Source of the DNA: an uncultured Acidobacteriota bacterium
GTDB lineage: Bacteria > Acidobacteriota > Thermoanaerobaculia > Multivoradales > DATKCC01
DNA length: 64,000 nt
Direction: 5' to 3'
Assembly (NCBI GenBank): GCA_963741925.1
Contig: CAVUJU010000002.1
Span: 595,978 to 659,977, forward strand
Below the pieces are notes generated by a model that had not been told where the DNA came from, ran no database searches, and worked only from the letters and a program-made list of their open reading frames with translations. Shown one piece after another: positions 1 to 61,126 of this stretch (position 1 is its first letter; every line of letters begins with the position of its first letter). The translations under genes were made by a program, and so were the position numbers.

Positions 1-297
1 CGCCCTCGGCGAGAATGTCCTGCATTCTTTCCACGCGAACACGATGGGGCTCAACCCGCTGGCGGGCCACTGCGACCATCTCCGATGCCGAGTCGATCCC
101 GTGGGCGTCGATGCCGGCCGCGATCGCCTTCTCCAGGAGCACACCCGTGCCGCAGCCGACGTCCAGCAGCCGACAGGAGTCCGGTGCGACGTCGAGCGCC
201 GCTTCGGTGACGAAGGCCTGATCGTCTCGGTAGTGGTCCGGCGGCGTGTGCAGGTCGTAGCGGTGCGCAAACTCGCCAAACAGCCTATAGGCCTCAC
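1..297 (-). CDS. class I SAM-dependent methyltransferase (5' part only; gene continues past window start)
   Basis: Reverse-strand translation VSEAYRLFGEFAHRYDLHTPPDHY...LLDVGCGTGVLLEKA (GxGxG motif I). The GTG start at 297 overlaps the upstream TGA (GTGA). Confidence 0.6.
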   Translation of the reverse strand, partial: MRPIGCLASLRTATTCTRRRTTTETIRPSSPKRRSTSHRTPVGCWTSAAARVCSWRRRSRPASTPTGSTRHRRWSQWPASGLSPIVFAWKECRTFSPRA

Positions 298-3200
298 TCA
301 CTGGCAGAGCCCTCCGCTCTTGCCGCGGGCATCGTGGTGAACGCCTTCACCGCCGCCTCGGTCACCTCCAGAGGTCGAGACCGGTTCGAAGAGGCAAGCG
401 GAGCGAGGCAGTCGAGAAGCCGCTCCAACGTGCGTTTCTGGCGCGGCGTCGCCGGCTTCAGCTTGCAGAGGCCGCCCAACTTCCGTTTCTCGTCCCGGAG
501 ACTGGCCCACTCCGCGAGGTTCGAGTCGGCAAGAGCCAGGAGCCGCGCGTAGCGTCGAAACCCGGTTGCCTCGCAGCGCGGGCAGGGCGTCTCCTTCGAG
601 CTCTCCTGGAGGCTGCGCGCCCACTCGTCGTCAGGGCTCCTCTGCGATTCATCCAGGAGGCGGCGAAAGAGGCCGTCCCAGCGCAGCCAGGAGGACACCT
701 GGGCCGGGTTCGAGCCGCGCTTCTTGAGAAACGAGCCTGGGCCCGGACGCGACCAGAAACCGTAGAGGATCAGTTCGCGGCCTCTGCCGTCGAGGCGTTC
801 GAAGGGGGTGCGGGCCGTCCAGAGACCCTCCCGGGCCATCCGGCTGAGGAACGGCTTGAGCTCGTTGCGGCGGACGCCCTTCATCACGGCATTGGCCTGC
901 GGCGTCAAGAACCCTTCCTCCTCCGGCGCCAACCGTCGATTCGCAACGACCAGCGCCTCGTCTAGCGTTCTGACCGTCCGGCGACCGCCGCACATGAGGC
1001 AGCGACCGGCGGGTTCGAGCCGCGAGAACTGAACCGGCACCGGCGCCATCGGCCCCACCAGGCCTCTCTCGAGGTCGAGTAGACGTTCCGAGCTGGCGGC
1101 GACCAGACGGCCGTGGGCGTCCCGAAGCTCCACGTAGCGGGAGCCGACGGCGAAGGCGTCTCGAAGCACCTCGGCCCTCTCCCTCCGCCCGCCGGTCTTC
1201 GGCACGAGGCGGTCCCCCGTCGCCCGAAGCCTCCGGACATCCAAGCTCGCTTTTCGAGACGCCCACGGCTCGCCCTTCTCGGTCACCAGCCGGAGGCCTT
1301 CCTTCGACAGATGATCCTCGGTGGTCTTGACCACCGATTGGGGGAGGTCCACTCCCCAGACCTGGAGATCCGTCAGGAAGGGATGGATTGCCAGCCATCC
1401 CCCGGGGACGATCTCCCATTCCGCGAGAAGGTCGTCGAACGCTTCGCCAGGCGGCTTGCGCAGGTCGAGCAGGAGCTTGGGGAGCTCAAGGTCCAGTCCG
1501 GCTACCTCCCAGGCCTCGGCGCCCGCCTCGGCTAGCTCGTAGAGGACCACCACGGGTTCAGCGAGGCCGTCTTCGGCCAAGGCCTGGGGAACTCCGTCTC
1601 CTTGGATGAGCGTTCGCAGGAGGGAGCGGGTCCTGGAAACCTGCTCCGGCACGGACAGCTTCTTCCCGCCGACTCGAGGTCGGGAACCGGCCGGCTTCTC
1701 GGGCTTCGGCAACTTGCCGGCGAGAGCGCGCCCTGTCGGCGTCGGAGCCTTCTCGAGCCGGCCAGGGGGACCGGAGAACACGATCTGCCCTCCATTTGGG
1801 CCACTGCCCGGCCCGAACTCGAGGACCCAGTCCGCGGCTCGAATCAAGCTGAGATCGTGCTCGACCATGACGATCGTGTTCGCCCCGTCCTCGAGGAGTC
1901 GCTCGAGCGCGCTGGCGAGGCGCCGAACATCCTCGCGATGAAGCCCGACCGCCGGCTCGTCGAGGAGGTAGATCGTGTGCTTCCCTACCGACCCACTCAG
2001 GTGCATCGCCAGGCGCAGGCGCTGGACTTCACCTCCGCTCAAGCTGTCCAGACGCCGGCCGAGCGCAACGTAGCCGATACCGAGGTCGCACATGCCGCTG
2101 ATCAAGGGCTCGGAGATGCCGAACGTGTCGACCAGGCGGCCGAGCCGATCGACTGGCATCTCGAGGAGCTCTTGCACGTTGGTGCCTGCCACGCGGACCG
2201 ACAGCACCTCATGCGTGTAGCGCGAGCCGCCACAGCGTGGGCAGACGGAGAACCGGCTACCGTCTTCCACCTCCCCCAGGCCGGCGCAGACCGGACACCG
2301 GCCGTTGCCGGCGTTGACACCGAAATCGCTCGGCGACAGTCGTTCCCGACGGGCGGCCGGCGAGGATCCGAAGGTCTTGCGAATGGCGTCGAAGTCGCTT
2401 GAAAAGGTGGCAACGAGACTTCTGCGGTTGGCTGGCGGTGTCGCCTGGTCAAGTGCGACGATCTCCTGAAGGGAGCTTAGCCCGGAGATCGACTTCCAGC
2501 GACCGCGGCGAAGCGAGAATTCCTCAGCGTCGTCCCCCACCTCCTGAAGCAAGGCCGGGGCGAGCACCCCCCTGAGGAAGCTCGACTTGCCTGAGCCGGA
2601 GACGCCACAGATGCAAGTGAGCCGGCCGAGGGGAATCTCACAGTCGACATCCTCCAGGTTGTAGATCGAAGCGCCGCAGACTTCGATCTTCGGATGGTCG
2701 CGGGCGATCTTCGAGGGCTGCCGCAGCCGATCCTCTCCTGAGGGCCGTGGCCAGTTGCGCCGTGGGCCGGCGTAGACGACCTCGCCGCCCTTCGAGGCCG
2801 CGCCAGGCCCTAGCTCGACGAGCCAATCCGCTGCCTCCCAAAGAGTCTCGCGATGCTCGTTGAGAATGACCGTATGGTCGTCGCGCAGCCGGTCGAAGGC
2901 GGCGGCTAGCGGAGCCAGGTCGGACTCGTGGAGCCCCCGGGCCGGTTCGTCGAGAAGCAGGCACAGGCCGCGTTCCCCGGCGTCGAGAACACGCGCGAGT
3001 CGGACTCTACGGCTTTCCCCCTTGCTCACCTCGATCATGCTTCGGTCTCCGGTGAGATAGCCGAGGCCGACCGAGATGAGAGACGAGGCATGCCTGCGGA
3101 GGTGTCGGACAAAAGGGACTCCTTCACGGGGGACAGCCTGTACGAGATCTCCCTGGTCCGCCGTCAGGTCGAGAACCTGGCGGAAGGTCATGGCGAGAAT

Positions 3201-4568
3201 CTCGGCGATGCCGTACCTACCGACACGTAGCGCTCTCGCCTGGAAGGACCAGCGCGTCCCGCCGCAGTAGCTGCACGGCCCGACCTCGACGAAGGCACCC
3301 AGGCGCTCGCCGGCCTTGGTCTTTCCCGCCACCTTCTCGAACACGATCTCTTCGAACCCGGCGAAGGGCCGTGGCCTGCCGATCTTGCGACCGGAGGCGT
3401 CGCGATCGAAGACGGGCTCGTCGCCGCTCCCGCCCAGTACGAGAGCTCGGGCGTCGTCGGAGAGCTTCGACCAGGGGATGTCCGGAGAGAAGCGGTGCAT
3501 GCCCCGCAGGCCTTCGATTGTCTCATGCTGAACATTCACATACTTGTAGTTCTTCTCCGTCCAGATCGCGAATGCGCCGTCTCGCATGGAACGTTCCGGG
3601 CGCGAAACGAGGCTCTCCTCGTCGAGTCGGTAGTCCACGCCTGTCCCATGACAGTTGGTGCAGGCCCCGCTCAGCTCATGATCCGGGGCGTTGAACGAGA
3701 GTAGATGCGGAGATGGCGGCGCGAACACTCCCGGAGTCTCTGGGTGGACCCAATGTTTCGTCGAATCGAGGCGAGCTCCGAAGGGCCCCATGAGGTCCGG
3801 GTTGGACGACTCGGGCAGCATGACGACCACCGAGCCCTTGGAGGCCGCGAAGGCGAGCTCCAACATCTTGCGCAACGCCTTCCTCTGGCCAGGGCCATTG
3901 ACTTCGATCTCCCCGATCGATGCCTCGATGGTGTGCCGCACGTTTGGGTTAAGTGGCTTGAACTCGGTCGTGGGGATCGAGCGGCCAGCCTCACGGATCG
4001 ACGCGGGGTCGGTCTCGCTGCGGACCACAAGCTGCTCGATACCCTTAGATGCCAGCCGCCGAACCGCGATGCGGCCGTCCGTTCGCTCGTTCCGGATGGG
4101 AGTGGCCCAGACCTCGGCGGTGCCCCGGTAGTGTTTGGCAATCCAGCGGGAGTATGTCTCCGCCGAGGGCGGTGGCACCTCGGCTCGGGCGCGCTCGGAG
4201 TACGGCTTGGAGGCGAGGACGAATAGCCGGCGAAGCACCGACAGGAAACCCGTGGCCGTGCCGACGGTTGTCCTGACGCTCGGCTGGAAGCCGCGCTGCC
4301 CTACCAGGACTGTCGGCGGCATCCTGCCGACAAAGGCCCGCACGTCGTCGCGTTCGAGGTCATCCTGCGTGGCTCCCAGGAACAGGCGGGTCCGGCGTGC
4401 TCCCTCGGCCGCCAGCGTGTCCGCAAGAAGGGAGCTCTTCCCTGATCCGGAGACTCCCGTAACGACAGAGATTCTTCCCAACGGGAAGGCGACATCGACG
4501 TTCTTCAGGTTGTTGGCGTCGCCACCGACGACTTCGATCGCTTCCGAGCTGCGAGGACGTGCCGTCAC
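294..4568 (-). CDS. UvrA-like double ABC ATPase (~975 aa core) fused to a ~450-aa C-terminal extension of unknown function
   Basis: N-terminus IEVVGGDANNLKNVDVAFPLGRISVVTGVSGSGKSSLL and second module IEVCGASIYNLEDVDCEIPLGRLTCICGVSGSGKSS match both UvrA ABC modules. It also has two LSGGE signatures, Walker B LLDEP, and zinc-finger Cys pairs (CTNCHGTG, CPVCAGLG..CPRCGGSRY). The track ORF 294..4649 is one continuous frame. The likely true start is GTG at 4568, overlapping the upstream stop (GTGA). Confidence 0.75.
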   Translation of the reverse strand: MTARPRSSEAIEVVGGDANNLKNVDVAFPLGRISVVTGVSGSGKSSLLADTLAAEGARRTRLFLGATQDDLERDDVRAFVGRMPPTVLVGQRGFQPSVRTTVGTATGFLSVLRRLFVLASKPYSERARAEVPPPSAETYSRWIAKHYRGTAEVWATPIRNERTDGRIAVRRLASKGIEQLVVRSETDPASIREAGRSIPTTEFKPLNPNVRHTIEASIGEIEVNGPGQRKALRKMLELAFAASKGSVVVMLPESSNPDLMGPFGARLDSTKHWVHPETPGVFAPPSPHLLSFNAPDHELSGACTNCHGTGVDYRLDEESLVSRPERSMRDGAFAIWTEKNYKYVNVQHETIEGLRGMHRFSPDIPWSKLSDDARALVLGGSGDEPVFDRDASGRKIGRPRPFAGFEEIVFEKVAGKTKAGERLGAFVEVGPCSYCGGTRWSFQARALRVGRYGIAEILAMTFRQVLDLTADQGDLVQAVPREGVPFVRHLRRHASSLISVGLGYLTGDRSMIEVSKGESRRVRLARVLDAGERGLCLLLDEPARGLHESDLAPLAAAFDRLRDDHTVILNEHRETLWEAADWLVELGPGAASKGGEVVYAGPRRNWPRPSGEDRLRQPSKIARDHPKIEVCGASIYNLEDVDCEIPLGRLTCICGVSGSGKSSFLRGVLAPALLQEVGDDAEEFSLRRGRWKSISGLSSLQEIVALDQATPPANRRSLVATFSSDFDAIRKTFGSSPAARRERLSPSDFGVNAGNGRCPVCAGLGEVEDGSRFSVCPRCGGSRYTHEVLSVRVAGTNVQELLEMPVDRLGRLVDTFGISEPLISGMCDLGIGYVALGRRLDSLSGGEVQRLRLAMHLSGSVGKHTIYLLDEPAVGLHREDVRRLASALERLLEDGANTIVMVEHDLSLIRAADWVLEFGPGSGPNGGQIVFSGPPGRLEKAPTPTGRALAGKLPKPEKPAGSRPRVGGKKLSVPEQVSRTRSLLRTLIQGDGVPQALAEDGLAEPVVVLYELAEAGAEAWEVAGLDLELPKLLLDLRKPPGEAFDDLLAEWEIVPGGWLAIHPFLTDLQVWGVDLPQSVVKTTEDHLSKEGLRLVTEKGEPWASRKASLDVRRLRATGDRLVPKTGGRRERAEVLRDAFAVGSRYVELRDAHGRLVAASSERLLDLERGLVGPMAPVPVQFSRLEPAGRCLMCGGRRTVRTLDEALVVANRRLAPEEEGFLTPQANAVMKGVRRNELKPFLSRMAREGLWTARTPFERLDGRGRELILYGFWSRPGPGSFLKKRGSNPAQVSSWLRWDGLFRRLLDESQRSPDDEWARSLQESSKETPCPRCEATGFRRYARLLALADSNLAEWASLRDEKRKLGGLCKLKPATPRQKRTLERLLDCLAPLASSNRSRPLEVTEAAVKAFTTMPAARAEGSASE

Positions 4569-5443
4569 GCCACAGGTTCCCCGAGGTGAAGGACGAGGAC
4601 GGACCGGGAGTCGAACTCGGTGGGAAATCGCGTGAACCGCACCGAGCAAGCGCCTCGGTAATGGAGTGCGGTGCGGTTCGACATGAGCACCGTATCGCCT
4701 GGGCGGGTGTGGAAAGGGACCGAGACATCCAGCGCAGCCCGGTGGATCGTGTCGATCATCGTCTCGAGGCCAGGTAGCGGAGCGTTAAGACGCTTGCAGG
4801 CGACGCGGAGGCTCGCTGGGTGATAGCGGATCGTCCGCTCGTTCACGAGCCGCCCTTGCCAGATCGCGGACGAGTGCTCTTGGGCCAAAGTGATCTCGGA
4901 TTCGGTCAGGAACGTCAGCGTGGCAACGTCTGCGGGGGCATCTCTCCTCAGCCGCGCGAGCAAGTCGGGCAGGAAGGCGACCCTCTGCTCCGCATACTCG
5001 GGGCCCCCCGGGTCTTCGATTTCGCATTGGAGCGCCGTGCAGCAGGGCGGCCTCGCAGAGACATTCGCATCAGTGTGGAACTCGCCAGCTTGCGTAGTAT
5101 GTGAAAGCTCCTTCGTCCATGGCGACATTCGGAAGCGCTTGACGATCCGGCCCGGGGGATAGGTCTCGAAAGAAGCGCCGAGCGCGCAGCTCGCAAGGAG
5201 CAGGGATCGCCCCCCATCCACCTGGAGGCTCCGGACCACGGCGTAGCCGCAATCGGCGATCGTTGTGCGTACGTGCTCGGAGAAGCCCTTCCAAGACTCC
5301 AAACGCTGGATGCGTGCCGCTAGGTGGCCTCCAAGTGCCTCTCGCTCTGCCTCCTCTAGGCAGTCGAAGCGCCCTGCCAGGTGGCAAATCTCGCACCTCA
5401 GATCCGCGCTGACCTGAATCTCAGGAAGTAGCCGCGCGGACAT
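4565..5443 (-). CDS. TauD/TfdA-family Fe(II)/2-oxoglutarate dioxygenase
   Basis: 292 aa with an HxD...H facial triad context (GEFHTDAN ... TALHYRG) typical of the TauD family. GC is lower and codons atypical (CTA, TTG, GCA). Confidence 0.55.
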   Translation of the reverse strand: MSARLLPEIQVSADLRCEICHLAGRFDCLEEAEREALGGHLAARIQRLESWKGFSEHVRTTIADCGYAVVRSLQVDGGRSLLLASCALGASFETYPPGRIVKRFRMSPWTKELSHTTQAGEFHTDANVSARPPCCTALQCEIEDPGGPEYAEQRVAFLPDLLARLRRDAPADVATLTFLTESEITLAQEHSSAIWQGRLVNERTIRYHPASLRVACKRLNAPLPGLETMIDTIHRAALDVSVPFHTRPGDTVLMSNRTALHYRGACSVRFTRFPTEFDSRSVLVLHLGEPVA

Positions 5444-6146
5444 CGGCCACCTGGAGACGGAAGATCAGTTTCTGCCGGTAGTGGTGCTCGAGCATGGTTC
5501 GCACGTCCGGGTAAGTGAACTCGGCGTTGAGCGGATCGTAGGTCACCCACCCCGATCGGCGCAGAGGTTGCACCGAAGGCAGAAGTCCCGCCTCAGACGC
5601 AGCCCTCATCACATCCAGCGGAGCGTGATCGTAGACCTGGTGGCCGGCGGCGACCAAGGTCTTTCTCCACTCCTGCCACAGTGGGTTCTCGGCGTGGGCA
5701 CCCAGCACGACATAGGCGACACCGCTTGGAGCCAAGACCCTGCGAATCCGCCCCATCGCCTCTCGAAGATCGTGCTCGAGGTACAGCTCCTCGTGGCTCG
5801 TAACTAGATCCACGACACCGTCGGGAATCTGGCCCCAGTCGCAGGAGTCGAGAAGCCTGACTCGCGCCGAGAGAGACGCGAGGCGTCGGCTGGCGCGACT
5901 GCGGGCGTCGCCCAGCGGCTCGACTCCGAAGATCTGGACCGGGCGAAAGCGGCGGGCCAGAGCCTCGAGAAGGCCTCCAGTATGGCAGCCGATGTCCAGG
6001 ATCACTCGCGGTTCAGCTTGGGAGTCCGTTTCGACATGCCTGATCACAGACGCCCAGAATGCCTCGTTGGCCCGAGGCAAGCCTTCATCGAGCGCAGGGT
6101 CGCCGAAGAAGGTCCGAGGTTCCGAGCCGGCGGCCTTCAAGGGCAT
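5421..6146 (-). CDS. class I SAM-dependent methyltransferase
   Basis: Motif I VILDIGCHTGGLLEALA. Internal start MPLKAAG at 6146 overlaps the upstream gene's stop (ATGCCCTTGA). Its stop overlaps the dioxygenase start. Confidence 0.6.
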   Translation of the reverse strand: MPLKAAGSEPRTFFGDPALDEGLPRANEAFWASVIRHVETDSQAEPRVILDIGCHTGGLLEALARRFRPVQIFGVEPLGDARSRASRRLASLSARVRLLDSCDWGQIPDGVVDLVTSHEELYLEHDLREAMGRIRRVLAPSGVAYVVLGAHAENPLWQEWRKTLVAAGHQVYDHAPLDVMRAASEAGLLPSVQPLRRSGWVTYDPLNAEFTYPDVRTMLEHHYRQKLIFRLQVADVRAATS

Positions 6147-6622
6147 CGCTGGGAGGAACAGCCTCGCGCCCTGGTGTCGCCGGCAGTGGGATCGATTCCG
6201 AAGTGGAGGATGAACTTCTCGACGGAGGCGCGAAAAGTGCGCTCCAATGCGGCTTCGTCCTCTGGGCCCCGCATCCCGAAATACGGGAAGTGATGAAGGA
6301 ACTCGCCGAAGACCTCGTCGCAATCGCGCGCATAGGCACGTGTATCGAGAATATGAGCGTGCCAGAAGGTGTCGATCGGCCCGGTGGGGCAGACCTTCTC
6401 GTCGCGATATCGGGCTGCTAGAGCGAGGAACTTTCTGTAGAGATCCTCGACCTCGTCGCAGAACTCGGGCGCCCAGCCTTTCTCCTCGTTCAATTTCCTC
6501 TTGAGCAGGCCGAAATCGAGCTTATCGACGCGATCGAGCGCCTGCTGGAGGGCCTCGTCGATGCCGACCATCGCCTGCGCGGCCTCGTAGGAGATCGGGC
6601 CATCTTGGTTGAACTCAGGCAT
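6137..6622 (-). CDS. DUF1399-like (glycine-rich-domain-protein-like) protein, possible metal-binding HxH/HH motifs
   Basis: 161 aa from ATG 6622, preceded by GGAGGAGG about 12 nt upstream. The motif CPTGPIDTFWHAHILDTRAYARDC resembles the DUF1399 signature. Confidence 0.4.
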   Translation of the reverse strand: MPEFNQDGPISYEAAQAMVGIDEALQQALDRVDKLDFGLLKRKLNEEKGWAPEFCDEVEDLYRKFLALAARYRDEKVCPTGPIDTFWHAHILDTRAYARDCDEVFGEFLHHFPYFGMRGPEDEAALERTFRASVEKFILHFGIDPTAGDTRARGCSSQRCP

Positions 6623-6856
6623 GTCGTGGGCTTCCCTCCTCCGGTGAATCGGTCGAGCGGGCTCACCAGCGTGCATCGCACGGAGCCGGCTTCTGACTCT
6701 GATGGGATGGCGTGGGTCTTCGTTCCAAAGCGAGTATAAGACAGGCCGCGGCCCGCACCAAACCGGCAGGCACCCAATCTACCGCACGGCGACCACCGAC
6801 CCTGCTGGCTTGACGGACGAGCCCGACGACGAGCTCCCGGGTGCTAGCATCCCACC

Positions 6857-7201
6857 ATGGTCGAGATCGAGGCCGTCTCTGCGCCGCTGGTGCTGTCCGT
6901 CGTGGGCGAGCTCGCCCGGGCGCTTCGGGAGCGGTTCGGCGGCTCGGTGGTCGACGTGCGGCTCTTCGGGTCGTTCGCGCGGGCCGAGGCCGACGAGGAG
7001 TCGGACGTGGATGTCGCGGTCGTGCTGGATCGGGTCGACTGGAAGACCCGCTGCCAGGTGATCGACCTCGCCACGGATACCGGCCTCCCCCACGACCTCC
7101 GGATCTCGCCGACGATCTTCGAGCGCGAGACCTTCGAGCGCTGGCGGGCGCAGGAGCGGCCCCTGGTCATGGACATCCTGCGCGACGGGGTGCCCCTGTG
7201 A
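6857..7201 (+). CDS. minimal nucleotidyltransferase (MNT) antitoxin-like protein
   Basis: Contains LFGSFARAEADEESDVDVAVVL (the GS..D.D nucleotidyltransferase fold motif), 114 aa. Confidence 0.7.
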   Translation: MVEIEAVSAPLVLSVVGELARALRERFGGSVVDVRLFGSFARAEADEESDVDVAVVLDRVDWKTRCQVIDLATDTGLPHDLRISPTIFERETFERWRAQERPLVMDILRDGVPL

Positions 7202-7588
7202 CCGGCGAGGGCCGGAGTCAATCGGCCGCCGCGGAGCTCGGTCTCGCGGACGAGGAGCTCCGCGCCGCCGGAGAAGCTCCTGGCCGCCGGCTTTCCCCGG
7301 ATCGCCCTCGCCCGCGCCTACTTCGCGCTCTTCCACGCCGTCCGGGCCCGACTCTACGCCGAGGGCCTCGAGCCCCGGACTCACGCCGGCGTGCAGCACC
7401 TGTGGAACGTCCACCTGGTGAGAACCGGGGTGTACGGCCCGGCGACCTCGCGCCTCCTGGCCCGGCTCCAGAAGTTCCGCGAGGAGGCCGACTACGCCCA
7501 GGCCTTCGTCGTCGACGAGGCGGGGGCGCGCGAGGAGATCGAGGCGGCCCGCGGGCTCGTGGAGAGAATCCGCGGCGACCTGGTCTGA
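7198..7588 (+). pseudogene. HEPN-domain toxin partner of the MNT, interrupted by a +1 frameshift near 7268
   Basis: The GTG at 7198 overlaps the MNT TGA (GTGA). Frame 1 gives VTGEGRSQSAAAELGLADEELRAAG. Frame 2 then gives EKLLAAGFPRIALARAYFALFHAVRARLYAEGLEPRTHAGVQHLWN...EEADYAQAF...VERIRGDLV, which is HEPN-like. Deleting one G in gccgccGgagaag restores a continuous HEPN ORF. Confidence 0.6.
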
Positions 7589-7598
7589 CCTCCCTCCC

Positions 7599-20750: not shown

Positions 20751-22087
20751 CGCACCATCCGGACGTCGCCGGCCGCCGGCCCGGTCTCGATCGTCTGCGG
20801 CAGGTGCAGGCCCCGGAACCAGACGATGCGCTGGCGCTCGAGGGTCCGCGACAGCTCGTCGACCGCCCGCTTGAACCCGCGGCGCGAGTAGACGCTGTCG
20901 ACCTCGCCCCAGGTGGCCGTGACCGGCGGGCTCACCGACTTCTCCACCGACCAGACGAAGAGGGGCACCCCGAGGTCGGTCAGGTAGCGCCGGACCGCCC
21001 GAGGGGTCATGCGGCTCGCGTCGGCGGGCTGGGCGCTCAGGACCAGGACCACGGCGCGCCGCCGGTCCCGGGCCGCCGCGCTCATGCCGGCCACGGCCAC
21101 GGCGTCGGCCAGGCGCTGGCGGCGGAGATCGAACGGCGGCTGCTGGGCCGCCGAGAGCAGGTAGTAGACGCCACCGTCCGACGGCAGATGCTCCTCGGAG
21201 CGGGCGAACAGGTCGTAGCCGACGCGGCCGTTCTCGCGGTGCAGCGAGAACGGCCAGAGGAACCGCAGGCTCTGATCCCGGTCCAGGCGCATGGCGGAGC
21301 GGAGCAGCTCGCGGGCTCGCGGGCCGGTTCCCACCGACGGGAAGGCCCGGCCGTTGGAAGGCACCCAGCGGGGGGCGAGGGCCCACAGGCCTTTTTGGGC
21401 CGCGCGGTCCATCACCACCACGACCTCGGCCGGCCCTGTCTCCGCCGCCACCGGCTCCAGCGGTTGACCCTGGGCCCGGAACCACCCGGCGAGCTCGGCC
21501 GGCGCCGGCAGCTCCTTGCGACCCTCGAGCTCGACGGCGGCGGCGCTCAGCTCGGTCTCGGTCGCCTGGTGGTAGGCGCCCCCGAACGCCGTCTCGACCA
21601 CCGCGGAGAGGTGGGACGGGAAGTCGAGCTCGGCGTGCAGGAAATGCAGCTGGTCCGGGTCGTGGGGCGGCAGCTCGATCCGGTGCGGATCGGAGACCGC
21701 GAGCGGCCGGCCGTCGAAGCTCACCGTCACCTTGCGGGGCGCGTCGCCCGAGACGCTCTCCCAGGTGAGCCGGGCGACGACGCCCCGGCCGCCCTCGCCG
21801 CCCTCGAAGATCACGTGGCCCTCGGCCTCGGGCCGGGGCAGGTTGATCCACTGGCGCGCCCGGCCCAGCTCCCGGCCGTCGGCGGCGCGGGCGATCGCCT
21901 CGAGCCGGTGGGGCTCGAGGGCGGAGCCGAAGTCGCAGGGCAGGGTCCAGGGAGCGCCCCCCATCTGCCCCACGCTGCGCCCGTCCAGCACCAGCTCGAC
22001 GGAGGCCACCCCCTGCCCCACGGCGAGCTCCACCGGCTGGACACCCAGGACCAGGCCGAGGAACAGGCTGGCGAACGCGACGATCAC
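20747..22087 (-). CDS. hypothetical exported protein
   Basis: 446 aa with N-terminal hydrophobic signal MIVAFASLFLGLVLG. RBS GAAGGAG is 6 nt upstream, and GCTACAAT sits about 37 nt upstream. Confidence 0.45.
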   Translation of the reverse strand: MIVAFASLFLGLVLGVQPVELAVGQGVASVELVLDGRSVGQMGGAPWTLPCDFGSALEPHRLEAIARAADGRELGRARQWINLPRPEAEGHVIFEGGEGGRGVVARLTWESVSGDAPRKVTVSFDGRPLAVSDPHRIELPPHDPDQLHFLHAELDFPSHLSAVVETAFGGAYHQATETELSAAAVELEGRKELPAPAELAGWFRAQGQPLEPVAAETGPAEVVVVMDRAAQKGLWALAPRWVPSNGRAFPSVGTGPRARELLRSAMRLDRDQSLRFLWPFSLHRENGRVGYDLFARSEEHLPSDGGVYYLLSAAQQPPFDLRRQRLADAVAVAGMSAAARDRRRAVVLVLSAQPADASRMTPRAVRRYLTDLGVPLFVWSVEKSVSPPVTATWGEVDSVYSRRGFKRAVDELSRTLERQRIVWFRGLHLPQTIETGPAAGDVRMVR

Positions 22088-22141
22088 GACGAGCTCCTTC
22101 GAACGTCCCCCTGATTGTAGCGCCCGGCCAGCAGGGTGTGC

Positions 22142-23725
22142 TCAGAGGATCAGCCGGTCGATCAGCCGGAGCACGGCGCCGGCGAAGAGGGCCGACGCGC
22201 CGGCGGCGAAGAGCAGGATGGCCCCCATCGCCAGGGTCAGGAGGTAGAGCCCGAGCAACAGGAGCGGCCCCATGACCAGGGTGAAGACGATCATCTCCAC
22301 GACGCCGCGCCGCCCGTCGCGGCGGAGCCGCTCCCGAAACCCCGGCCGCTTCGCCGTCGCTGCCGCGAGCGCCGGGTCCGAGGGGTCTGCGCCCAGGGCG
22401 GCCAGGCGGCGCAGGCGGCGCTCGAGCTTGGGATGGGAGCCGACCGGGACCGGGTGCTCGCCTCTCCCCGCGCTGGGCTCCGGCGCCGCCACGAACAGGT
22501 GCTCGAGCCAGGCGCCGCCAGGGGACGCCACTGCCCCGCCCCCCAGGGCCGCCAGCCCCCGGGCGACCTCGGTGGGGTCGCGGGTGAGCTGGACCGCGGT
22601 GGCGTCGGCGAGGTAGCGGCGGGCGCGGAGCATGCCGCCCACGAGCGGGCCGACGACCACCAGCCGCAGCATCTGGACCTCCAGGCGCACCAGGTGGACG
22701 ACCAGGTAGACGAGGAGGAACGGCAGGAGGAAGAGCTTGAGGACGGGGAACCGCTTGAGGAGGCGCCCGCCGCGGCTCCGGGGCTCGGCCTCGTCGGCGT
22801 CGCTCGCGAGCCCCAGCAGGCCGTCGAAGCGCTCGGGGGCGAGGCGCCCCTCGAGGCTCCCGGCCACCGCCTCCGCGGTCGCCGGCGAGCGCCGCCCCCG
22901 GAGCATCCAGCCGAGGGCCCTGACCATCTCGCGCCAGGCCGCGGGGCTCCAGCCCATGAGGGCGTCGAGGAGGGTGAACACGAAGCCCATGGCCTGGAAG
23001 ACCGCGGTCACGGCGAGGGCGAGGCGAGGATCGCCGTTGGCCGCCGAGGCGACGAGCAGGGCGGCGACGCCCTGGGTCTCGCCCCGGTCGCAGCGCTCGA
23101 GCACCCCGCGGGTCACCACCACCACCGCGCGCTCCGGGGACGGCCCGACCAGGGCGGCGTTCGGCGCCTCCTGATCGATCAGGAGGACCCGCGGCGCCGG
23201 CACGCCCGCGGCGATCGCCATCTCCTGGACCACGTCGACGAGCTGGTGCTCCTCGAGGTCGCCCGCGCGGGGCTCGCGCGCCCCGAGGCGGGCCAGCACG
23301 GCGCCCGGCACGACCTCGCTCGCGAGGCGCCGGAAGCCCGCCCAGACGGCGACCATGGCCGCCACCCCGGGCACCAGGAGGACGGCGAGCGCCGCCGCCA
23401 GGTCGAGGCGGCCGAGCGCACCGGCCGGCGCGCTCCCGGTCCACGCGTCCAGGGCCGCCGGCACCAGCCCCGCCAGGTGGTGCAAGGCCGCCCACACCGC
23501 AACCGGCACCGGCGTGACCAGGCCGACCAGGCGCACGCCCACCGCCACGACACCGAAGACCAGGGGGGTGAGGACCGCCGTGAGGGGCAGCCCCATGACC
23601 AGGATCGCGACCCCGCACAGGGCCGCCCACCAGCGCGCGTGGCGCCGCCGGCTCGCCTGCTCGTCGTAGAAGCTCCGACGGCGGGATGGACCGGCGGCGG
23701 AGTCACCAGGCGCTTCGCGCAGCAC
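22142..23725 (-). CDS. M48 (HtpX-like) peptidase-fold membrane protein lacking the HExxH motif (probable pseudo-protease)
   Basis: The region VDVVQEMAIAAGVPAPRVLLIDQEAPNAALVGPSPERAVVVVTRGVLERCDRGETQGVAALLVASAANGD aligns to HtpX ...VYIIDSPQPNAFATG...GVLAHELSHIRNGD, but has ALLVAS where HELSH is expected. Multiple TM helices. Confidence 0.5.
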   Translation of the reverse strand: MLREAPGDSAAGPSRRRSFYDEQASRRRHARWWAALCGVAILVMGLPLTAVLTPLVFGVVAVGVRLVGLVTPVPVAVWAALHHLAGLVPAALDAWTGSAPAGALGRLDLAAALAVLLVPGVAAMVAVWAGFRRLASEVVPGAVLARLGAREPRAGDLEEHQLVDVVQEMAIAAGVPAPRVLLIDQEAPNAALVGPSPERAVVVVTRGVLERCDRGETQGVAALLVASAANGDPRLALAVTAVFQAMGFVFTLLDALMGWSPAAWREMVRALGWMLRGRRSPATAEAVAGSLEGRLAPERFDGLLGLASDADEAEPRSRGGRLLKRFPVLKLFLLPFLLVYLVVHLVRLEVQMLRLVVVGPLVGGMLRARRYLADATAVQLTRDPTEVARGLAALGGGAVASPGGAWLEHLFVAAPEPSAGRGEHPVPVGSHPKLERRLRRLAALGADPSDPALAAATAKRPGFRERLRRDGRRGVVEMIVFTLVMGPLLLLGLYLLTLAMGAILLFAAGASALFAGAVLRLIDRLIL

Positions 23726-23728
23726 GGC

Positions 23729-25237
23729 TCAGGCCAGGAAGACCCAGTAGCTGCCGGAGGCCGACCGTCTCTCCGACAGGCCGAAGCGCTCGCCGGCCGA
23801 CTTGCCGTCCCGCAGCAGGTAGTACACGTCGGAAAGAACCGATCGATTGTCGCCGTAGTAGAAATGCCCGACGAGGTCCGTGTCCACCGCCGAGGCGTCG
23901 ATCGTTTCCACCTCCGGGACCACCACGATGTTCGCTCCGGCGTCTCCCGCCCGCGGGTAGCCGTGAAACTTCCGGGACGCCTCGAGGGCCCGGTCCTTGT
24001 CGGAGGCGTAAAGGGTCACCCGGCGAGCCGCCCTTCGCAAGGCGGACGCCATCTGGCGGAAGACGTCGGCGTCGATGTCGGGAGCGGTGAGCACGACCTC
24101 GCTGAAGGCCGGCGTGCCGGGCGCGGCCATGGTTGCGGCGATCTCCCCGAGGGCCCGGGTCAGTGCGCGGTTGCCCATGCTGTGGGCGATCAGGTGGATC
24201 GCCCGCGCTCCCGAGCCCGACGCCAGGTCGACCAGGAACGACTTCAGGTGGGGCACCGTCCACTCCACGTTGGTCTCGTCGTGGGCGTACCCGGTGAGGG
24301 AGAGCTTCCCTTTCGACGGCCAGCTATAGAAGACCGGCGCGCCCTCGAGCTTCAGGTCGTAGGCGAGCTGCGCGGTGCGCCTGGCGGCGTCCTCGAAGGA
24401 GACGTTGAAGCCGTGGAGGAAGAGCAGGATCTCACCGCGAACAGAGGCCTCGAGGCATGCCGAGAGCTCGGCGAAGAAGCCGGCCGCTTCGGCTTTCCGG
24501 AGAGACAGGAGGACGACGTGCTCCCGCGGGTCCCTCCGCAGCTCGAGGCGCCGCCAGGAGGGTCCCTCCAGGGCGCCCATCCGGTGGTCCCTTGGAATGC
24601 TCACCTCGCAGACCCCGTACTCCAGGGAGCCGTCGCCCCGGGTCGAGCCGAAATGGCGGGCGGCCGGGCGCGATCCGCCGGGCTTGCGGTCCGTGGCGTA
24701 GAAGACCTCGACCCGGTGGTAGGGGACTCGGGGAGGCGCCTCGTAGGCCTCGTCTGGGGCGCCGCCCCCCGACGTGTCATGCCCGAGCCCCGTATCGGTG
24801 TCGTAGGCTCCTTCCACCTCGACACCCAGGTCTCTCCCGGCGGTTCCCCGGCTCGGAGCCCGCGGGGCGCCGCCCGCTCTCTCCCCGCGCCGCCTCGTCT
24901 CGTCGGGCCGACGCCGGCTGGGCCGCCGCCCGGTTCCAATCCTCTCGGTGCCCTGGCTCGGCCGCGCCGGTCCAAGCAGGTCGTCAGGGGGCCGGAAGCG
25001 CACGGCGAAGCTCTCCCGGATCCGGATCGGCGCTCCCGTCGCGGGACTGCGCCCGGGTCTCGCCGGCCGCCGGTGGACCGAGAACGCACCGAAGCGAGGG
25101 ACGGTGACCCGCTCACCGCGGGCCAGGGCCGCCCGGATCGCCGCGAGCACCGCGTCGAGGATCTCGGCGGCCTGGCCCTTGGTGAGCCCGTCGACGCTCT
25201 CCCAGAGGTCCTCCACCAGGTTCGCCCTGCCCGCCAT
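23729..25237 (-). CDS. fusion of N-terminal HU/IHF-like DNA-binding domain and C-terminal DUF900-type alpha/beta hydrolase
   Basis: The N-terminus LTKGQAAEILDAVLAAIRAALARGERVTVPRFGAFSVHRRPARPGRSPATGAPIRIRESFAVRFRP fits the HU pattern (FG.F.V..R.AR.GRNP.TG..I.I). The C-terminus has a GxSxG nucleophile (IAHSMGNRAL) in a DUF900-like context. Confidence 0.55.
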   Translation of the reverse strand: MAGRANLVEDLWESVDGLTKGQAAEILDAVLAAIRAALARGERVTVPRFGAFSVHRRPARPGRSPATGAPIRIRESFAVRFRPPDDLLGPARPSQGTERIGTGRRPSRRRPDETRRRGERAGGAPRAPSRGTAGRDLGVEVEGAYDTDTGLGHDTSGGGAPDEAYEAPPRVPYHRVEVFYATDRKPGGSRPAARHFGSTRGDGSLEYGVCEVSIPRDHRMGALEGPSWRRLELRRDPREHVVLLSLRKAEAAGFFAELSACLEASVRGEILLFLHGFNVSFEDAARRTAQLAYDLKLEGAPVFYSWPSKGKLSLTGYAHDETNVEWTVPHLKSFLVDLASGSGARAIHLIAHSMGNRALTRALGEIAATMAAPGTPAFSEVVLTAPDIDADVFRQMASALRRAARRVTLYASDKDRALEASRKFHGYPRAGDAGANIVVVPEVETIDASAVDTDLVGHFYYGDNRSVLSDVYYLLRDGKSAGERFGLSERRSASGSYWVFLA

Positions 25238-49280: not shown

Positions 49281-51315
49281 GGGATAGGCCCGGGCGAGCA
49301 AGCCCGCCCGGGTCCCCCCACAGATCCGGACGTGCGGATTTCCCGCATCCGGCTCCTCGTGACACGGGTTCGCTGCACGACGTCAAGCGGCGTGGACGAT
49401 CTTCGGCCGCGGCAAGGGGTAGGCGCCGAGGAGGCGGACGAACCGCTCCCAAGGCATCGACCTCTTGCCCGACCGCCGGTCGAGCCACTTGCGCCACTCG
49501 CGCGTGACCTGGCGGTAGAAGTTGTCGAGTGCGTGGAAGTTGCCGGTAATGCCGTAGTAACCGTAGTGGCCCTGCAGCGCTCGCGACAGCCGTCGCTGCT
49601 GCGTCGCCACGGGGTCGTGACGGCCCTGCCGACACCGTTCCCGCATCCGACTCATCGACCGAGCAAACCGACTCGCGGCCGTCGTGCGCTTGACCACCCA
49701 CGACCCTCGCTGGCGCCCACCCTTGCCCCAGAAGTGCGTGAACCCGAGGAAGACGAAGGTGCCCGGACCCTCGGGCCCGGACCCGTCGCTCCCCCACCGT
49801 GGCCGGCGGAAGCGCACCCGTCGCGTCTTCTCCGGGTGCAGGCGCAGACCGAAGCGGGCGAGCCGCTTCGGCAGCACCTCTTCCACCCGACGGGCGTCGT
49901 GCTCGTCGGCGAAGACGATCACCAGATCGTCCGCATACCGCACCAGCACAGCGCGCCCACGAAGCCGCGGTTGGACCTCTTCCTCCCACCACCGGTCCAC
50001 CACCTCGTGAAGGTAGACGTTGGCCAGCAAGGGCGAGATGACGCCTCCCTGCGGAGTCCCCGCCTCGGGGTGACGTACACGCCCCTCTTCCATCACACCC
50101 GCCTGCAGCCACTTGCCAATTGCCCTCCGGATCACGCCGTCGCGCACCCGGCGGTCGAGAAAAGACCTCAAGTGGTCCCGATCCAGCTCGTCGAAGAAGC
50201 TCTGGATGTCGACCTCCAGTACCCACCCACCCCCGAGCTCGGAGAGCTCCTTGCGCAGAACGCGCAGCGCATCGTGCGCCGAGCGACCGGGCCGAAAGCC
50301 GTACGAGCAGTCCAAGAAGTCCTCCTCGTAGATGGCCTCCAGCACCATCGTCACCGCACGCTGCAGCACCTTGTCTTCGAAGGTGGGGATCCCGATCGCA
50401 CGGGTCTCCGACCCGGTGCCTTTCGGAATGTGAGCCCGCTGGACCGGCGGCGCTCGGTAGAGGCCTGACTTGAAGCGGTCGAGAAGCGACCGGAGGTTGC
50501 CCCCGAGGTTCTCCTCGTACTGCTTCGCCGTCCGGCCGTCGATGCCTGGCGCTCCGTCCTTGCGGGTCCGGGAGTAGGCCTCCCAGAGCCAGTGCTCGTC
50601 GATGTAGTGAGCCAGACTGAGAAACGACCGCTCGTGGTCCTCCCTCGCCAGCCTCGCTATCCGACGAAGTCGCGTTGAGATGCTCCCGAGATTCGGCGAT
50701 CCCGACATCGTTCCCCTCGTTCGGTTCCGTGTCCCGGAGCCCCCCTTCCCTCCACCGGGTCCCTTGGGTCGGTTCCCCGGCTTCCACGGTACTACGGGGG
50801 CTCTCTGACTCCCCACCACCCTTCCCGCCGGGCTCGGTTTCCTTCGCCGGGCGGTACCGCCTGTGCGACCGCTCCTTCGCTCCCGGGGTGCGCGGTCGGC
50901 CTCGACCACGGGCCTGGATCTTGGGTCAGCCGGGACCCTCACCGGCACGTTCTTCGGCGGAGATGGAAGGGCCTCCCAGGTTCCTGGAGGGACCCTTGGA
51001 CGTATGCCGTGCTCTCTGACCCCGGCCGAGCCCTTGCGCCAGGCCATTGCGGCGCTCGGGTGCTGTCGCCCGTTCCACTACAAGGACGACCTCAGCGAGA
51101 CGTGCATTTCGAGGCTCCATCACACGGCCTCCGCCCTCGCTGTCTACGCTTCGCAGGTGCCCTTGCGGTGCCGCCCACGCAAGACTCGCTTCTGGCTGGT
51201 GGCCAACCTTTGCCAGGCGGGGCTCACACCCGCCGGGTCCCATCTGGAAAGTTTCCGGCTCTGTTGACCCGCGTCTACATCACCTTCCTCCTTCCCCAGG
51301 CTTTGCCTGGCGCAC
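49280..51315 (-). mobile_element. group II intron (~2.0 kb) with intron-encoded RT/maturase
   Basis: The reverse-strand 5' end is GTGCGCCAGGCAAAGCC (51315 downward). The domain V hairpin GAGCCGGATGCGGGAAATCCGCACGTCCGGATCT lies at 49302-49338, followed by a domain VI-like helix. The IEP ORF lies in the domain IV position. Confidence 0.75.
49383..50708 (-). CDS. group II intron-encoded reverse transcriptase/maturase (no En domain evident)
   Basis: RT motifs RAIGIPTFEDKVLQ, PQGGVISPLLANVYL, RYADDLVIVF and the maturase/X region WLQAG...FLGFTHFW. SD GAGGGGAA precedes the ATG at 50708. Confidence 0.85.
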   Translation of the reverse strand: MSGSPNLGSISTRLRRIARLAREDHERSFLSLAHYIDEHWLWEAYSRTRKDGAPGIDGRTAKQYEENLGGNLRSLLDRFKSGLYRAPPVQRAHIPKGTGSETRAIGIPTFEDKVLQRAVTMVLEAIYEEDFLDCSYGFRPGRSAHDALRVLRKELSELGGGWVLEVDIQSFFDELDRDHLRSFLDRRVRDGVIRRAIGKWLQAGVMEEGRVRHPEAGTPQGGVISPLLANVYLHEVVDRWWEEEVQPRLRGRAVLVRYADDLVIVFADEHDARRVEEVLPKRLARFGLRLHPEKTRRVRFRRPRWGSDGSGPEGPGTFVFLGFTHFWGKGGRQRGSWVVKRTTAASRFARSMSRMRERCRQGRHDPVATQQRRLSRALQGHYGYYGITGNFHALDNFYRQVTREWRKWLDRRSGKRSMPWERFVRLLGAYPLPRPKIVHAA

Positions 51316-51401: not shown

Positions 51402-52262
51402 TTACCACCCCTCTTTAGCAGCGGTCACTCGTATGAGCAACGGGAGCTGGAGCTCGATCCGCGCGTTCGCGCTAGAACCGGTAGGTCTCTGTTCCAAGTG
51501 ATAGACGAAGGTGGTCGTCAAGGTCTTGCTCGTTTCGGGGCGAAACTGCCATGTTTCGATGTTGGCGGCGGCCTCGGCGCCGAGAAGGCGTTCTCCCGAG
51601 AGCAGCTTCGTGGAAATCACCTTTCCTGCCTGCACTACGACTTTCAAGACCACTTCGCCCGAAATTCCGGCTCGCCGAGCCATCTCAGGATACTTAGGTA
51701 CTTCCGCCGCAACGACTAGAGGCGGCTTTTCCTCCGTTCGAAATCGGATTACCCTGGCAGCGATCTCGCGCGGCGCGGGATGCGCTTCGAGAACCTCGTT
51801 CACGACAAGCTTGGTGCGGAAGCCGTCAAGATGCCCATATCGCCTTCCAGAAACCCGATTCGCATACGCCACAATGGGATTCACTGACAAGTCCTCGGGA
51901 CCCAAAGGCTTCGGGCCGTAGAGTTCGCCGCGAATTGTGACCGAGGCAGAGTGGGACGCCTCGAGAATTCGATCTAAAACGTTACGCCCTGGAGCCTGCG
52001 AACTGACTTCGACCCACGTCGAGGGCTGGACGTCCCATGGGCACAGTGGGTAGTCCGGATCAAAAAAGACCTGTTGCTCCATGCCACTCAGGATTACTCC
52101 AGAGAGGCGAACAGGGATCCGTTGTCCCGCGTTCGCCCTTACCAATGCGGAGCAGAGGTAGAGAACTTCTTCCTGGTTCCTCGCAGTTTGAGCCGGCTGG
52201 CCGCCCAGCACGGTCAGAAGAATTGCTGCTCCTACGCTCAGAGTGATGCTCTTCATAGTCAT
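51402..52262 (-). CDS. exported protein with C-terminal TonB_C-like domain; candidate immunity protein of the orphan RHS toxin
   Basis: Signal peptide MTMKSITLSVGAAILLTVLG and a C-terminal PKYPEMARRAGISGEVVLKVVV. GC is ~50%. It lies immediately downstream of the RHS C-terminal tip. Confidence 0.45.
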   Translation of the reverse strand: MTMKSITLSVGAAILLTVLGGQPAQTARNQEEVLYLCSALVRANAGQRIPVRLSGVILSGMEQQVFFDPDYPLCPWDVQPSTWVEVSSQAPGRNVLDRILEASHSASVTIRGELYGPKPLGPEDLSVNPIVAYANRVSGRRYGHLDGFRTKLVVNEVLEAHPAPREIAARVIRFRTEEKPPLVVAAEVPKYPEMARRAGISGEVVLKVVVQAGKVISTKLLSGERLLGAEAAANIETWQFRPETSKTLTTTFVYHLEQRPTGSSANARIELQLPLLIRVTAAKEGW

Positions 52263-61102: not shown

Positions 61103-61126
61103 TCGTCTCTCCGGGGCGGGGTCGGT

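Follow-up and report, generated by a model that had tools for sequence, protein, structure and literature searches.

UvrA is among the best-studied sensors of DNA damage, and its known variants either drop a domain, as the class II proteins do, or double the whole protein. A gene at the edge of a 64,000-nucleotide stretch of DNA from an uncultured Acidobacteriota bacterium (contig CAVUJU010000002.1; we call the whole stretch the window) fits neither pattern. It encodes a UvrA-like protein whose reading frame runs on, past the point where UvrA should end, into a tail of several hundred residues with two CxxC motifs of its own. What is this tail, and what might a UvrA do with it?

The tail is a diverged, ancient duplicate of part of UvrA itself: signature domain I, a UvrB-binding-like domain and the insertion domain, without a nucleotide-binding domain. 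An earlier note on this DNA, made from the sequence alone, had left a choice between an artefact and a novel fusion. A second assembly and a set of homologues dispose of the artefact. The novel fusion needs correcting: the added segment is a diverged internal duplication of UvrA and not a foreign domain. The best explanation of the whole, to which we give a probability of about three in four, is that the tail is a conserved third module lacking an ATPase and that the paralogue is the DNA-binding subunit of its gene cluster, working outside nucleotide excision repair (NER). Copying only the segment for DNA specificity and docking is a third way of re-tooling UvrA, and suggests recruitment beyond excision repair.

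The list of open reading frames (ORFs) and their translations place an ORF of 1451 codons, counted from the first TTG, on the minus strand at window positions 294-4649. The gene itself spans 294-4568, with a GTG start at 4568, a stop codon at 294-296 and a product of 1424 amino acids; the frame stays open to the TTG at 4649. Public gene calls use the GTG at 4568, and the public protein P0161 is 100% identical to the 1424-residue product. The UvrA-like core ends in ...GPGSGPNGGQIVFSGPPGRLEKAPT at ORF aa 970, which is aa 943 of the 1424-residue protein; these last core residues, GRLEKAPT (1740-1763), belong to the end of ATP-binding cassette (ABC) module II. Another 481 amino acids follow in the same frame with no stop (297-1739), a Pro/Lys-rich linker coming first. 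The earlier note had described just such an uninterrupted linker and some 450 residues containing CLMCGGRRT and CPRCEATGF, and translation bears this out: the first motif lies at ORF aa 1217 (its CLMC at 990-1001), the second at ORF aa 1356 (its CPRC at 573-584). The range assigned to the extension at that time, 294-1700, covers the whole tail except for the first 13 residues of the linker. That a canonical UvrA ends at this point, as the note had also said, agrees with the end of the TIGR00630 model and with the UvrA chains in the PDB, which are 916-993 residues long and end directly past the second ABC module. Because the solved chains finish there, the tail is both real and unusual. No second UvrA-like gene was found within the 64-kb window.

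Is the junction genuine? A Logan contig (L035, run SRR27973224) is base-identical to the window over positions 1-7274, junction included, and encodes the same 1424-residue protein. The two assemblies, possibly built from the same reads, are not copies of one another, since they differ by one nucleotide at about 7274. The earlier note had proposed looking for homologous extensions fused to UvrA elsewhere, and would have given up the tail had it lacked conserved homologues. Such homologues exist, and they are fused in frame wherever the locus reaches the junction. A search with the tail alone found 15 relatives at 36-56% identity, all those that reach the junction having a UvrA C-terminus joined in frame; a scan of species-representative genomes gave 15 loci, tail homologues overall being 33-56% identical. 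Thirteen genome loci were checked for reading frame, and 12 run unbroken through the whole of core and tail; the exception, L009 (a long-read assembly), has a frameshift inside the tail. Splitting of the gene was seen solely in contigs of long-read style (L001, L002/L007 and L009) and fits the indel errors of such contigs. A full-length protein search returned more than 120 clusters of about 1400-1465 residues, with 96-99% of the query covered. No free-standing tail-only gene was seen among the tail-search matches; the short ones are contig fragments or pieces split by frameshifts.

An assembly or frameshift error joining a UvrA gene to a separate downstream gene could appeal to the nucleotide at about 7274, which breaks a HEPN gene and so reveals that indel errors or variants occur in the window sequence, and to the long-read-style contigs that split the homologous gene, but it is refuted by the absence of any difference between the two assemblies over 1-7274, by the continuous frame in short-read metagenome-assembled genomes (MAGs), complete genomes and one plasmid, by the more than 120 full-length homologues and by the lack of a tail-only gene among the matches. 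The tail is a real component of a specialised UvrA paralogue, and a conserved one. The family is already present in public databases, unrecognised, under the names 'hypothetical protein', 'excinuclease ABC A subunit' and 'UvrABC system protein A'; the NCBI pipeline uses 'hypothetical protein'.

The tail and the UvrA core

Module I of UvrA consists of ATP-binding domain I, signature domain I, a UvrB-binding domain that carries zinc module 1 and an insertion domain that carries zinc module 2. The insertion domain sets DNA binding and substrate specificity in UvrA and in Ecm16. The tail repeats the middle of this arrangement. It opens with the linker to the core (ORF aa 971-1030; 1560-1739, on the minus strand like every part of the gene), where the predicted local distance difference test score (pLDDT) is below 50-70 in both structural models. 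The first part of the third module is acidic and signature-domain-like (ORF aa 1031-1100; 1350-1559), being aligned by hhalign to the core segment past Walker A. It is followed by an alpha/beta domain like the UvrB-binding domain, without zinc module 1 (ORF aa 1101-1200; 1050-1349), and by a region like a zinc-anchored insertion domain (ORF aa 1201-1365; 555-1049), recognised by TIGR00630, by alignment to UvrAs in the PDB and by hhalign. The helical end of the signature-domain-like region completes it (ORF aa 1366-1451; 297-554), the hhalign alignment extending as far as core aa ~529. The module halts just short of the position where an ABC signature would be expected; in the core the signature motif stands at aa 541.

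The kinship between tail and core is visible to profiles and structure and not to plain BLASTP, whose best E value for tail against core was 0.05, not significant. A Pfam scan of the tail found no family. Model positions 265-433 of TIGR00630 match tail aa 235-413 (E 5e-10), and profile alignments to the PDB make the tail collinear with UvrA residues ~205-454, its first and second CxxC corresponding to the first and second halves of zinc module 2 with the insertion domain between them. Compared by hhalign with the N-terminal half of its own family, the tail family scores 98.8% probability (E 7e-17) and is collinear over 377 columns; tail aa 1010-1442 correspond to core aa ~86-529, that is, to module I between Walker A and the ABC signature, CLMC pairing with core CTNC and CPRC with core CSYC. 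The match to the C-terminal half is weak (76.7%). The AlphaFold2 (AF2) model of the tail has a pLDDT of 79 and a predicted template-modelling score (pTM) of 0.74, and is confident except for the linker and one loop; over both models the pLDDT of the tail is 79-85. Foldseek with this model returned UvrA as all of its top 21 matches (best E 7.7e-12), aligning over 458-476 columns with class I UvrAs and over ~280 with class II UvrAs, which have no UvrB-binding domain. The profile and structure prediction that the earlier note had called for thus points to UvrA by every route. By homology, CLMC and CPRC would combine into one Cys4 zinc site equivalent to UvrA zinc module 2, instead of making a finger each.

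The core has most of what a UvrA should have. ABC module I with its inserted domains (ORF aa 35-640) lies at 2730-4547, with Walker A at 4431-4457 and Walker B at 2946-2960; ABC module II (ORF aa 641-970) lies at 1740-2729, with Walker A at 2580-2606, LSGGE at 2028-2042 and Walker B at 1956-1970. GVSGSGKSS, DEP and the H-loop His each occur twice, as two ABC modules would have them. Zinc module 2 is formed by CTNC (3651-3662) and CSYC (3264-3275), and zinc module 3 by CPVC (2286-2297) and CPRC (2232-2243), with cysteines invariant across 27 sequences. Pfam detects ABC_tran and UvrA_DNA-bind (aa 343-431, 4e-13), while UvrA_inter, over the UvrB-binding-like region, stays below threshold at 18.9 bits against a cutoff of 23.3. 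Zinc module 1 is missing, there being no CxxC between aa 74 and 329 of the core; the UvrB-binding-domain-like region itself is present. The signature motif of module I (3012-3029) is non-canonical, S-[E/K]-G-E standing family-wide in place of LSGGE, and given this difference one of the two composite ATP sites may be catalytically distinct.

TIGR00630 spans the core end to end (model positions 2-921) at 589.3 bits, short of its equivalog cutoff of 729.8, and NF001503 scores 558 bits against a cutoff of 1147. A class I protein would end at ~920-990 residues; this one has 1424, 481 of them past the last UvrA model position. It shares the absence of zinc module 1 with class II, yet has UvrB-binding-like regions in both core and tail. 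As judged from these profiles and motifs, the protein is a member of the UvrA superfamily that fails the class I equivalog tests and fits class II in part. Might it still be a normal excision-repair UvrA with a decorative C-terminal extension? Its two ABC modules, zinc modules 2 and 3, UvrB-binding-like region and end-to-end TIGR00630 match are those of such a protein. Both equivalog scores fall below their cutoffs, however, zinc module 1 is gone, signature motif I is altered and the NCBI pipeline does not go beyond 'hypothetical protein'. The gene always sits in an accessory cluster with a low GC content at third codon positions (GC3), once on a mobilizable plasmid, and without an adjacent uvrB; no uvrB or uvrC occurs in any fetched neighbourhood of the paralogue. 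We consider an ordinary repair function very improbable.

Comparison with solved UvrAs brings out what has been added. Class I proteins (G. stearothermophilus 2R6F/3UWX and T. maritima 3PIH) share the two ABC modules, a signature domain I bearing UvrB-binding(-like) and zinc-anchored insertion domains, and the zinc finger on signature domain II; the tail is homologous to the non-ATPase part of their module I. The window protein differs from them in its third, ATPase-less copy past the normal C-terminus, its lack of zinc module 1, its S-[E/K]-G-E motif, its sub-equivalog score and its accessory mobile cluster in place of NER genes. Class II proteins (D. radiodurans UvrA2, 2VF7; Ecm16, 7SH1; DrrC) are non-NER paralogues that also have no zinc module 1. 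The UvrB-binding domain is missing from Ecm16 and UvrA2, which are UvrB-independent, and an insertion domain decides which DNA is recognised, which makes class II a plausible functional analogy. With ~800-840 residues and no UvrB-binding domain, they are nevertheless shorter than the window protein, which has two UvrB-binding-like regions and two insertion domains and, unlike the class II resistance proteins, is not adjacent to polyketide synthase (PKS) or nonribosomal peptide synthetase (NRPS) genes in more than 20 loci. The duplicated UvrAs of ~1600-1960 residues (NF001885/PRK00635 type) were also enlarged by tandem module duplication, and the tail profile matches them in two places. They have complete halves with nucleotide-binding domains, whereas the window protein combines three signature/UvrB-binding-like/insertion segments with two ATPase modules.

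How closely is the third module kept? All 12 cysteines of the six CxxC motifs, the tail's four included, are invariant in 27 of 27 aligned members. The same holds for both copies of Walker A, of the Walker B Asp-Glu pair and of the H-loop histidine, and for LSGGE in module II. Mean pairwise identity is 0.57 in the ATPase parts of module I, 0.50 in module II, 0.47 in the core inserts, 0.38 in the tail and 0.26 in the linker, the least conserved segment. Because its identity falls between those of core and linker, the tail is less constrained than the core yet clearly under selection. Its insertion-like domain has an invariant motif of its own, GxWxRPGxGxFLK...WLRWxG (672-761; 59 sequences). Mean net charge runs from -5.5 in the first part of the tail to +5.6 in the insertion-like part and +5.1 in the C-terminal part, these last two being basic throughout the family.

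The tail is also older than the split between two clades of the family. An exhaustive search of representative sequences and a local hidden Markov model search added about 12 clusters of proteins of 1300-1470 residues, a distant clade whose cores are about 28-32% identical to that of the window protein. The C-terminal ~250-270 residues of these proteins match the tail profile at 88-136 bits, where ordinary or duplicated UvrAs reach at most ~60. Because the tail is kept in both clades while the cores have diverged so far, the duplication predates the clade split. It was the representative search and a metagenome scan that reached this clade; a word-indexed protein search with the tail of one of its members (P0056) gave no match. 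Hosts belong to five phylum-level groups (Acidobacteriota, Gemmatimonadota, Myxococcota, Alphaproteobacteria and Desulfobacterota), and cultured carriers are Sorangium cellulosum, Corallococcus sp. BB11-1, Chondromyces apiculatus DSM 436 and Azospirillum ramasamyi, the last on an 88-kb plasmid; the Azospirillum protein is WP_111070856.1 and a Sorangium one WP_433934992.1. The viral contigs searched contained no relative. One weak match of 24% identity in a phage collection, to an unannotated 4-kb record, was disregarded.

These data bear on a further possibility, that the tail is the leftover of a third ABC half that lost its ATPase and has been drifting without function. Duplicated UvrAs with complete extra halves are common, the tail has no Walker A, signature motif or Walker B, and it changes faster than the core, all of which a relic would explain. 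A drifting sequence, on the other hand, would hardly be kept at full length in two clades whose cores are ~30% identical, retain dozens of invariant residues (the four cysteines and the motif invariant in 59 sequences among them), stay clearly more conserved than the linker and be predicted to fold with a pLDDT of 79-85. We regard a functionless relic as very unlikely. As a module of ~440 residues in which Pfam detects nothing, the tail merits a domain model of its own.

The gene cluster and its surroundings

The UvrA paralogue is never found alone. In the window it is the fourth gene of a minus-strand cluster whose first four genes, with the first 100 codons of the fifth, lie inside the window, the remainder being beyond position 1. 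The first gene encodes a GRDP-like (DUF1399) protein of 161 residues (6137-6622), recognised by Pfam GRDP-like and an alignment of 20 orthologues. Next come MT1, a class I S-adenosylmethionine (SAM)-dependent methyltransferase of 241 residues (5421-6146; Pfam Methyltransf_25/11/23, synteny and the L035 gene call), and TauD1, a TauD/TfdA-family iron/2-oxoglutarate (Fe/2OG) dioxygenase of 292 residues (4565-5443; Pfam TauD at 8.6e-8 and synteny in every locus). The GTG start of the paralogue at 4568 overlaps the TauD1 stop in the shared sequence GTGA. A second class I SAM methyltransferase, MT2, follows; its 5' part (1-301, start GTG at 299-301) is cut by the window edge, and its start overlaps the stop of the paralogue by 8 nucleotides. 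MT2 is supported by comparison with its counterparts in L001 and L002, by a tblastn match at 69% identity and by the whole gene in L035.

L035 gives the complete order: GRDP-like protein (161 residues), methyltransferase (241), TauD (292), UvrA paralogue (1424), methyltransferase (240), RdrA-like ATPase (799), RdrB-like deaminase (873) and a second TauD-family dioxygenase, TauD2 (250). Genes within the cluster overlap or are separated by gaps of 33 nucleotides or less; because stops and starts overlap, we read it as a single, translationally coupled operon. A HEPN/MNT toxin-antitoxin pair lies upstream. In the window the MNT nucleotidyltransferase gene is at 6857-7201, and the HEPN gene (7198-7590, plus strand) is frameshifted by a one-nucleotide insertion at about 7274 relative to its intact ORF in L035; this may be an indel error of the assembly or else a real variant leaving the toxin inactive.

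More than 20 loci, from two clades that diverged deeply, keep the cluster synteny, with variants in order. The window-type order recurs in MAGs of Thermoanaerobaculia, Bryobacterales, Allosphingosinicella and Gemmatimonadota. The clusters of Sorangium cellulosum and Corallococcus have the same order with an extra CmcI-like methyltransferase, and a more divergent subgroup has the RdrB-like and TauD2 genes on the opposite strand. On the mobilizable plasmid of Azospirillum ramasamyi a PhyH dioxygenase replaces TauD2. The distant clade reads GRDP-like protein, PhyH, methyltransferase, TauD, methyltransferase, UvrA paralogue. Six genes make up the invariant core, namely those for the three-module UvrA, the DUF1399 protein, a pair of methyltransferases and a pair of Fe/2OG dioxygenases.

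The small GRDP-like protein has an invariant His-rich motif, FWHxHILDT...Y..DC...LHHxPYFG, and an invariant C-terminus, ...ARxCSSQRCP in clade 1 and ...C[SK]STDCR in clade 2. These motifs could form a metal site, or could be a substrate of the dioxygenases and methyltransferases encoded alongside. Searching PDB sequences with TauD1, TauD2 and the GRDP-like family gave nothing usable; pentatricopeptide-repeat (PPR) matches to TauD2 were spurious.

The RdrA-like and RdrB-like genes (L035 8527-13552, just past window position 1) recall RADAR, a pairing of the AAA+ ATPase RdrA with the adenosine deaminase RdrB. Their scores are low: 5e-11 and 41.9 bits against a cutoff of 600 for NCBIfam RdrA, and 3e-25 and 88.7 bits against a cutoff of 800 for NCBIfam RdrB. 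The PADLOC RdrB profile matches the RdrB-like protein at 1e-14 to 7e-18. In the 873-residue L035 protein we read HNHIHH, LHAGED and STDDP, which we take to be the catalytic motifs of adenosine deaminases (HxH, HAGE and TDDP). Judged by their sequences, the two are genuine relatives of RADAR, though distant ones, set within a larger operon. RADAR as described consists of two proteins, its RdrB deaminating ATP and dATP during infection (PMC9994260). The pair in the window's clade, by contrast, belongs to an eight-gene operon, and other versions of the cluster lack it.

A further comparison is with MADS (mad1-8) and other ABC-ATPase defence proteins (AriA, PtuA). PADLOC mad3 and mad8 match the ABC modules with strong scores, and mad2 matches the methyltransferases, over generic ABC or SAM-binding regions only. 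Mad3 is an AbiEii/OLD-type ATPase with a Toprim domain, and Mad6, Mad7 and Mad8 are mandatory (MADS preprint). Membership was rejected, the mandatory Mad6 (kinase), Mad7 (DptG-like) and Mad8 (HerA-like) being absent from the cluster. Our literature search, with incomplete coverage of subscription journals, found no description of the protein architecture or the cluster, and the cluster as a whole may be something new.

Composition marks the cluster as an island. Cluster genes in the window have a GC3 of 0.75-0.79, and the complete cluster in L035 ranges over 0.66-0.82, compared with 0.93-0.98 for housekeeping genes nearby; overall GC climbs from ~0.65 in the cluster (1-6700) to ~0.74 from 7600 onward. 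This points to recent horizontal acquisition. The plasmid copy of A. ramasamyi adjoins Dcm, Vsr and an integrase. A scan of 96 flanking ORFs at 17 loci found two type II DNA methylases, two restriction endonuclease families, two AbiEii and two PIN genes, together with a class II prokaryotic Argonaute (pAgo), Hhe, Mokosh MkoA, the candidates PDC-S02 and PDC-S37, a STAND NTPase, ArdC and four transposase families; genes of ordinary metabolism occur among the flanks as well. PIN, YoeB/Phd, AbiE, TIR-FHA and KptA-like genes lie near the cluster at single loci. By guilt by association, the flanks carry the signature of a defence or mobile island.

Three individual neighbourhoods deserve mention. 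In Sorangium cellulosum (L018, CP162580.1) the cluster has KptA/Tpt1-type (PTS_2-RNA) genes on either side (6024-7366 and 21818-22408) and adjoins a TIR-FHA protein and a STAND-kinase. An NYN-domain protein lies directly 3' of one distant-clade cluster (L022, 9950-11299). A pentapeptide-repeat protein, of a type that mimics DNA and protects gyrase, lies directly 3' of another (L020, 8427-8879), at that locus only.

A possible role for the paralogue

We propose that the paralogue is an ATP-driven subunit that would bind double-stranded DNA in the service of the cluster, outside UvrB-dependent excision repair. From the ATPase motifs, together with zinc modules 2 and 3 and the insertion domain of the core, we predict that the core retains ATP-dependent DNA binding. 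Because zinc module 1 is absent, the profile score is below cutoff and the operon is an accessory one, the protein has probably lost its link to the canonical recruitment of UvrB. With the third module each protomer would gain another insertion domain, specialised in a different way, basic and with its own invariant aromatic/arginine loop, and also a second UvrB-binding-like docking surface, possibly bringing cluster partners to particular DNA. The neighbourhood suggests an anti-phage or anti-mobile-element role as the most likely setting. A conserved mobile operon, spread over five groups of hosts, in defence surroundings and frequently with RADAR-like genes, indicates an uncharacterised functional unit, which the cultured carriers make directly testable.

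Several points weigh against this proposal. The Azospirillum plasmid copy has no RdrA/RdrB pair, nor was one seen in the clade-2 contigs, which are short, and a defence role is suggested by the neighbourhood and by a RADAR homology that lies far under the curated cutoffs. It is predicted from homology only that the tail binds DNA and zinc and docks partners. The tail evolves faster than the core, and the loop bearing GxWxRPGxGxFLK...WLRWxG, its most conserved element, is modelled by AF2 with low confidence. Finally, the methyltransferases and dioxygenases resemble enzymes that tailor small molecules or proteins and would suit a biosynthetic cluster equally well.

This last point leads to the serious rival among those we weighed. 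The cluster might make a DNA-targeting product by hydroxylating and methylating the GRDP-like protein or a small molecule, and the UvrA paralogue might clear or tolerate that product, protecting its producer as DrrC and Ecm16 do against intercalators. Clusters for DNA-binding natural products are known to have UvrA-like resistance genes as a hallmark. The partners are of tailoring type, the class I methyltransferases weakly matching methyltransferases of small molecules and of ribosomally synthesized and post-translationally modified peptides (RiPPs), beside the TauD/PhyH dioxygenases; the invariant C-terminal Cx4C peptide of the GRDP-like protein is reminiscent of peptide-derived cofactors; and one clade-2 locus has a pentapeptide-repeat gene directly 3'. 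Against it, more than 20 loci offer no PKS, NRPS, radical-SAM enzyme, protease, cyclase or exporter in the cluster. The class II resistance UvrAs have no UvrB-binding domain, where the window protein has two such regions; the flanking genes are those of defence and mobile elements and not of biosynthesis; and a RADAR-like deaminase pair lies inside the operon in the window's clade. We think self-resistance unlikely, though it is the account to be taken most seriously beside that of a DNA-binding subunit outside NER.

A more speculative reading can be offered, tentatively. The paralogue could serve to read DNA for an undescribed multi-enzyme system that has been widely transferred and that links DNA surveillance to chemical modification. 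Were this so, the modified targets would be purine nucleotides, DNA or a protein C-terminus, and the cluster would represent a novel type of system, directed against phages or modifying DNA. It would then be through the duplicated insertion and docking module that a repair-type sensor recognises foreign or modified DNA and recruits enzymes to it.

Other features of the window

A reverse transcriptase of 554 residues is encoded on the minus strand at 49383-51047 (Pfam RVT_1, 1.5e-32). Its best PADLOC matches are generic reverse transcriptase profiles and profiles of homing-endonuclease type, and these favour a group II intron-like element over a defence reverse transcriptase. Two very large RHS-repeat proteins of 958 and 1881 residues follow on the same strand (52259-55135 and 56199-61844); their GC3 of 0.85 is below that of housekeeping genes, and the pair adjoining the reverse transcriptase may be a polymorphic-toxin locus. 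Elsewhere in the window, a minus-strand gene at 23729-25237 encodes a 502-residue protein in which an N-terminal DNA-binding domain of HU/IHF type is fused to a DUF900 alpha/beta hydrolase.

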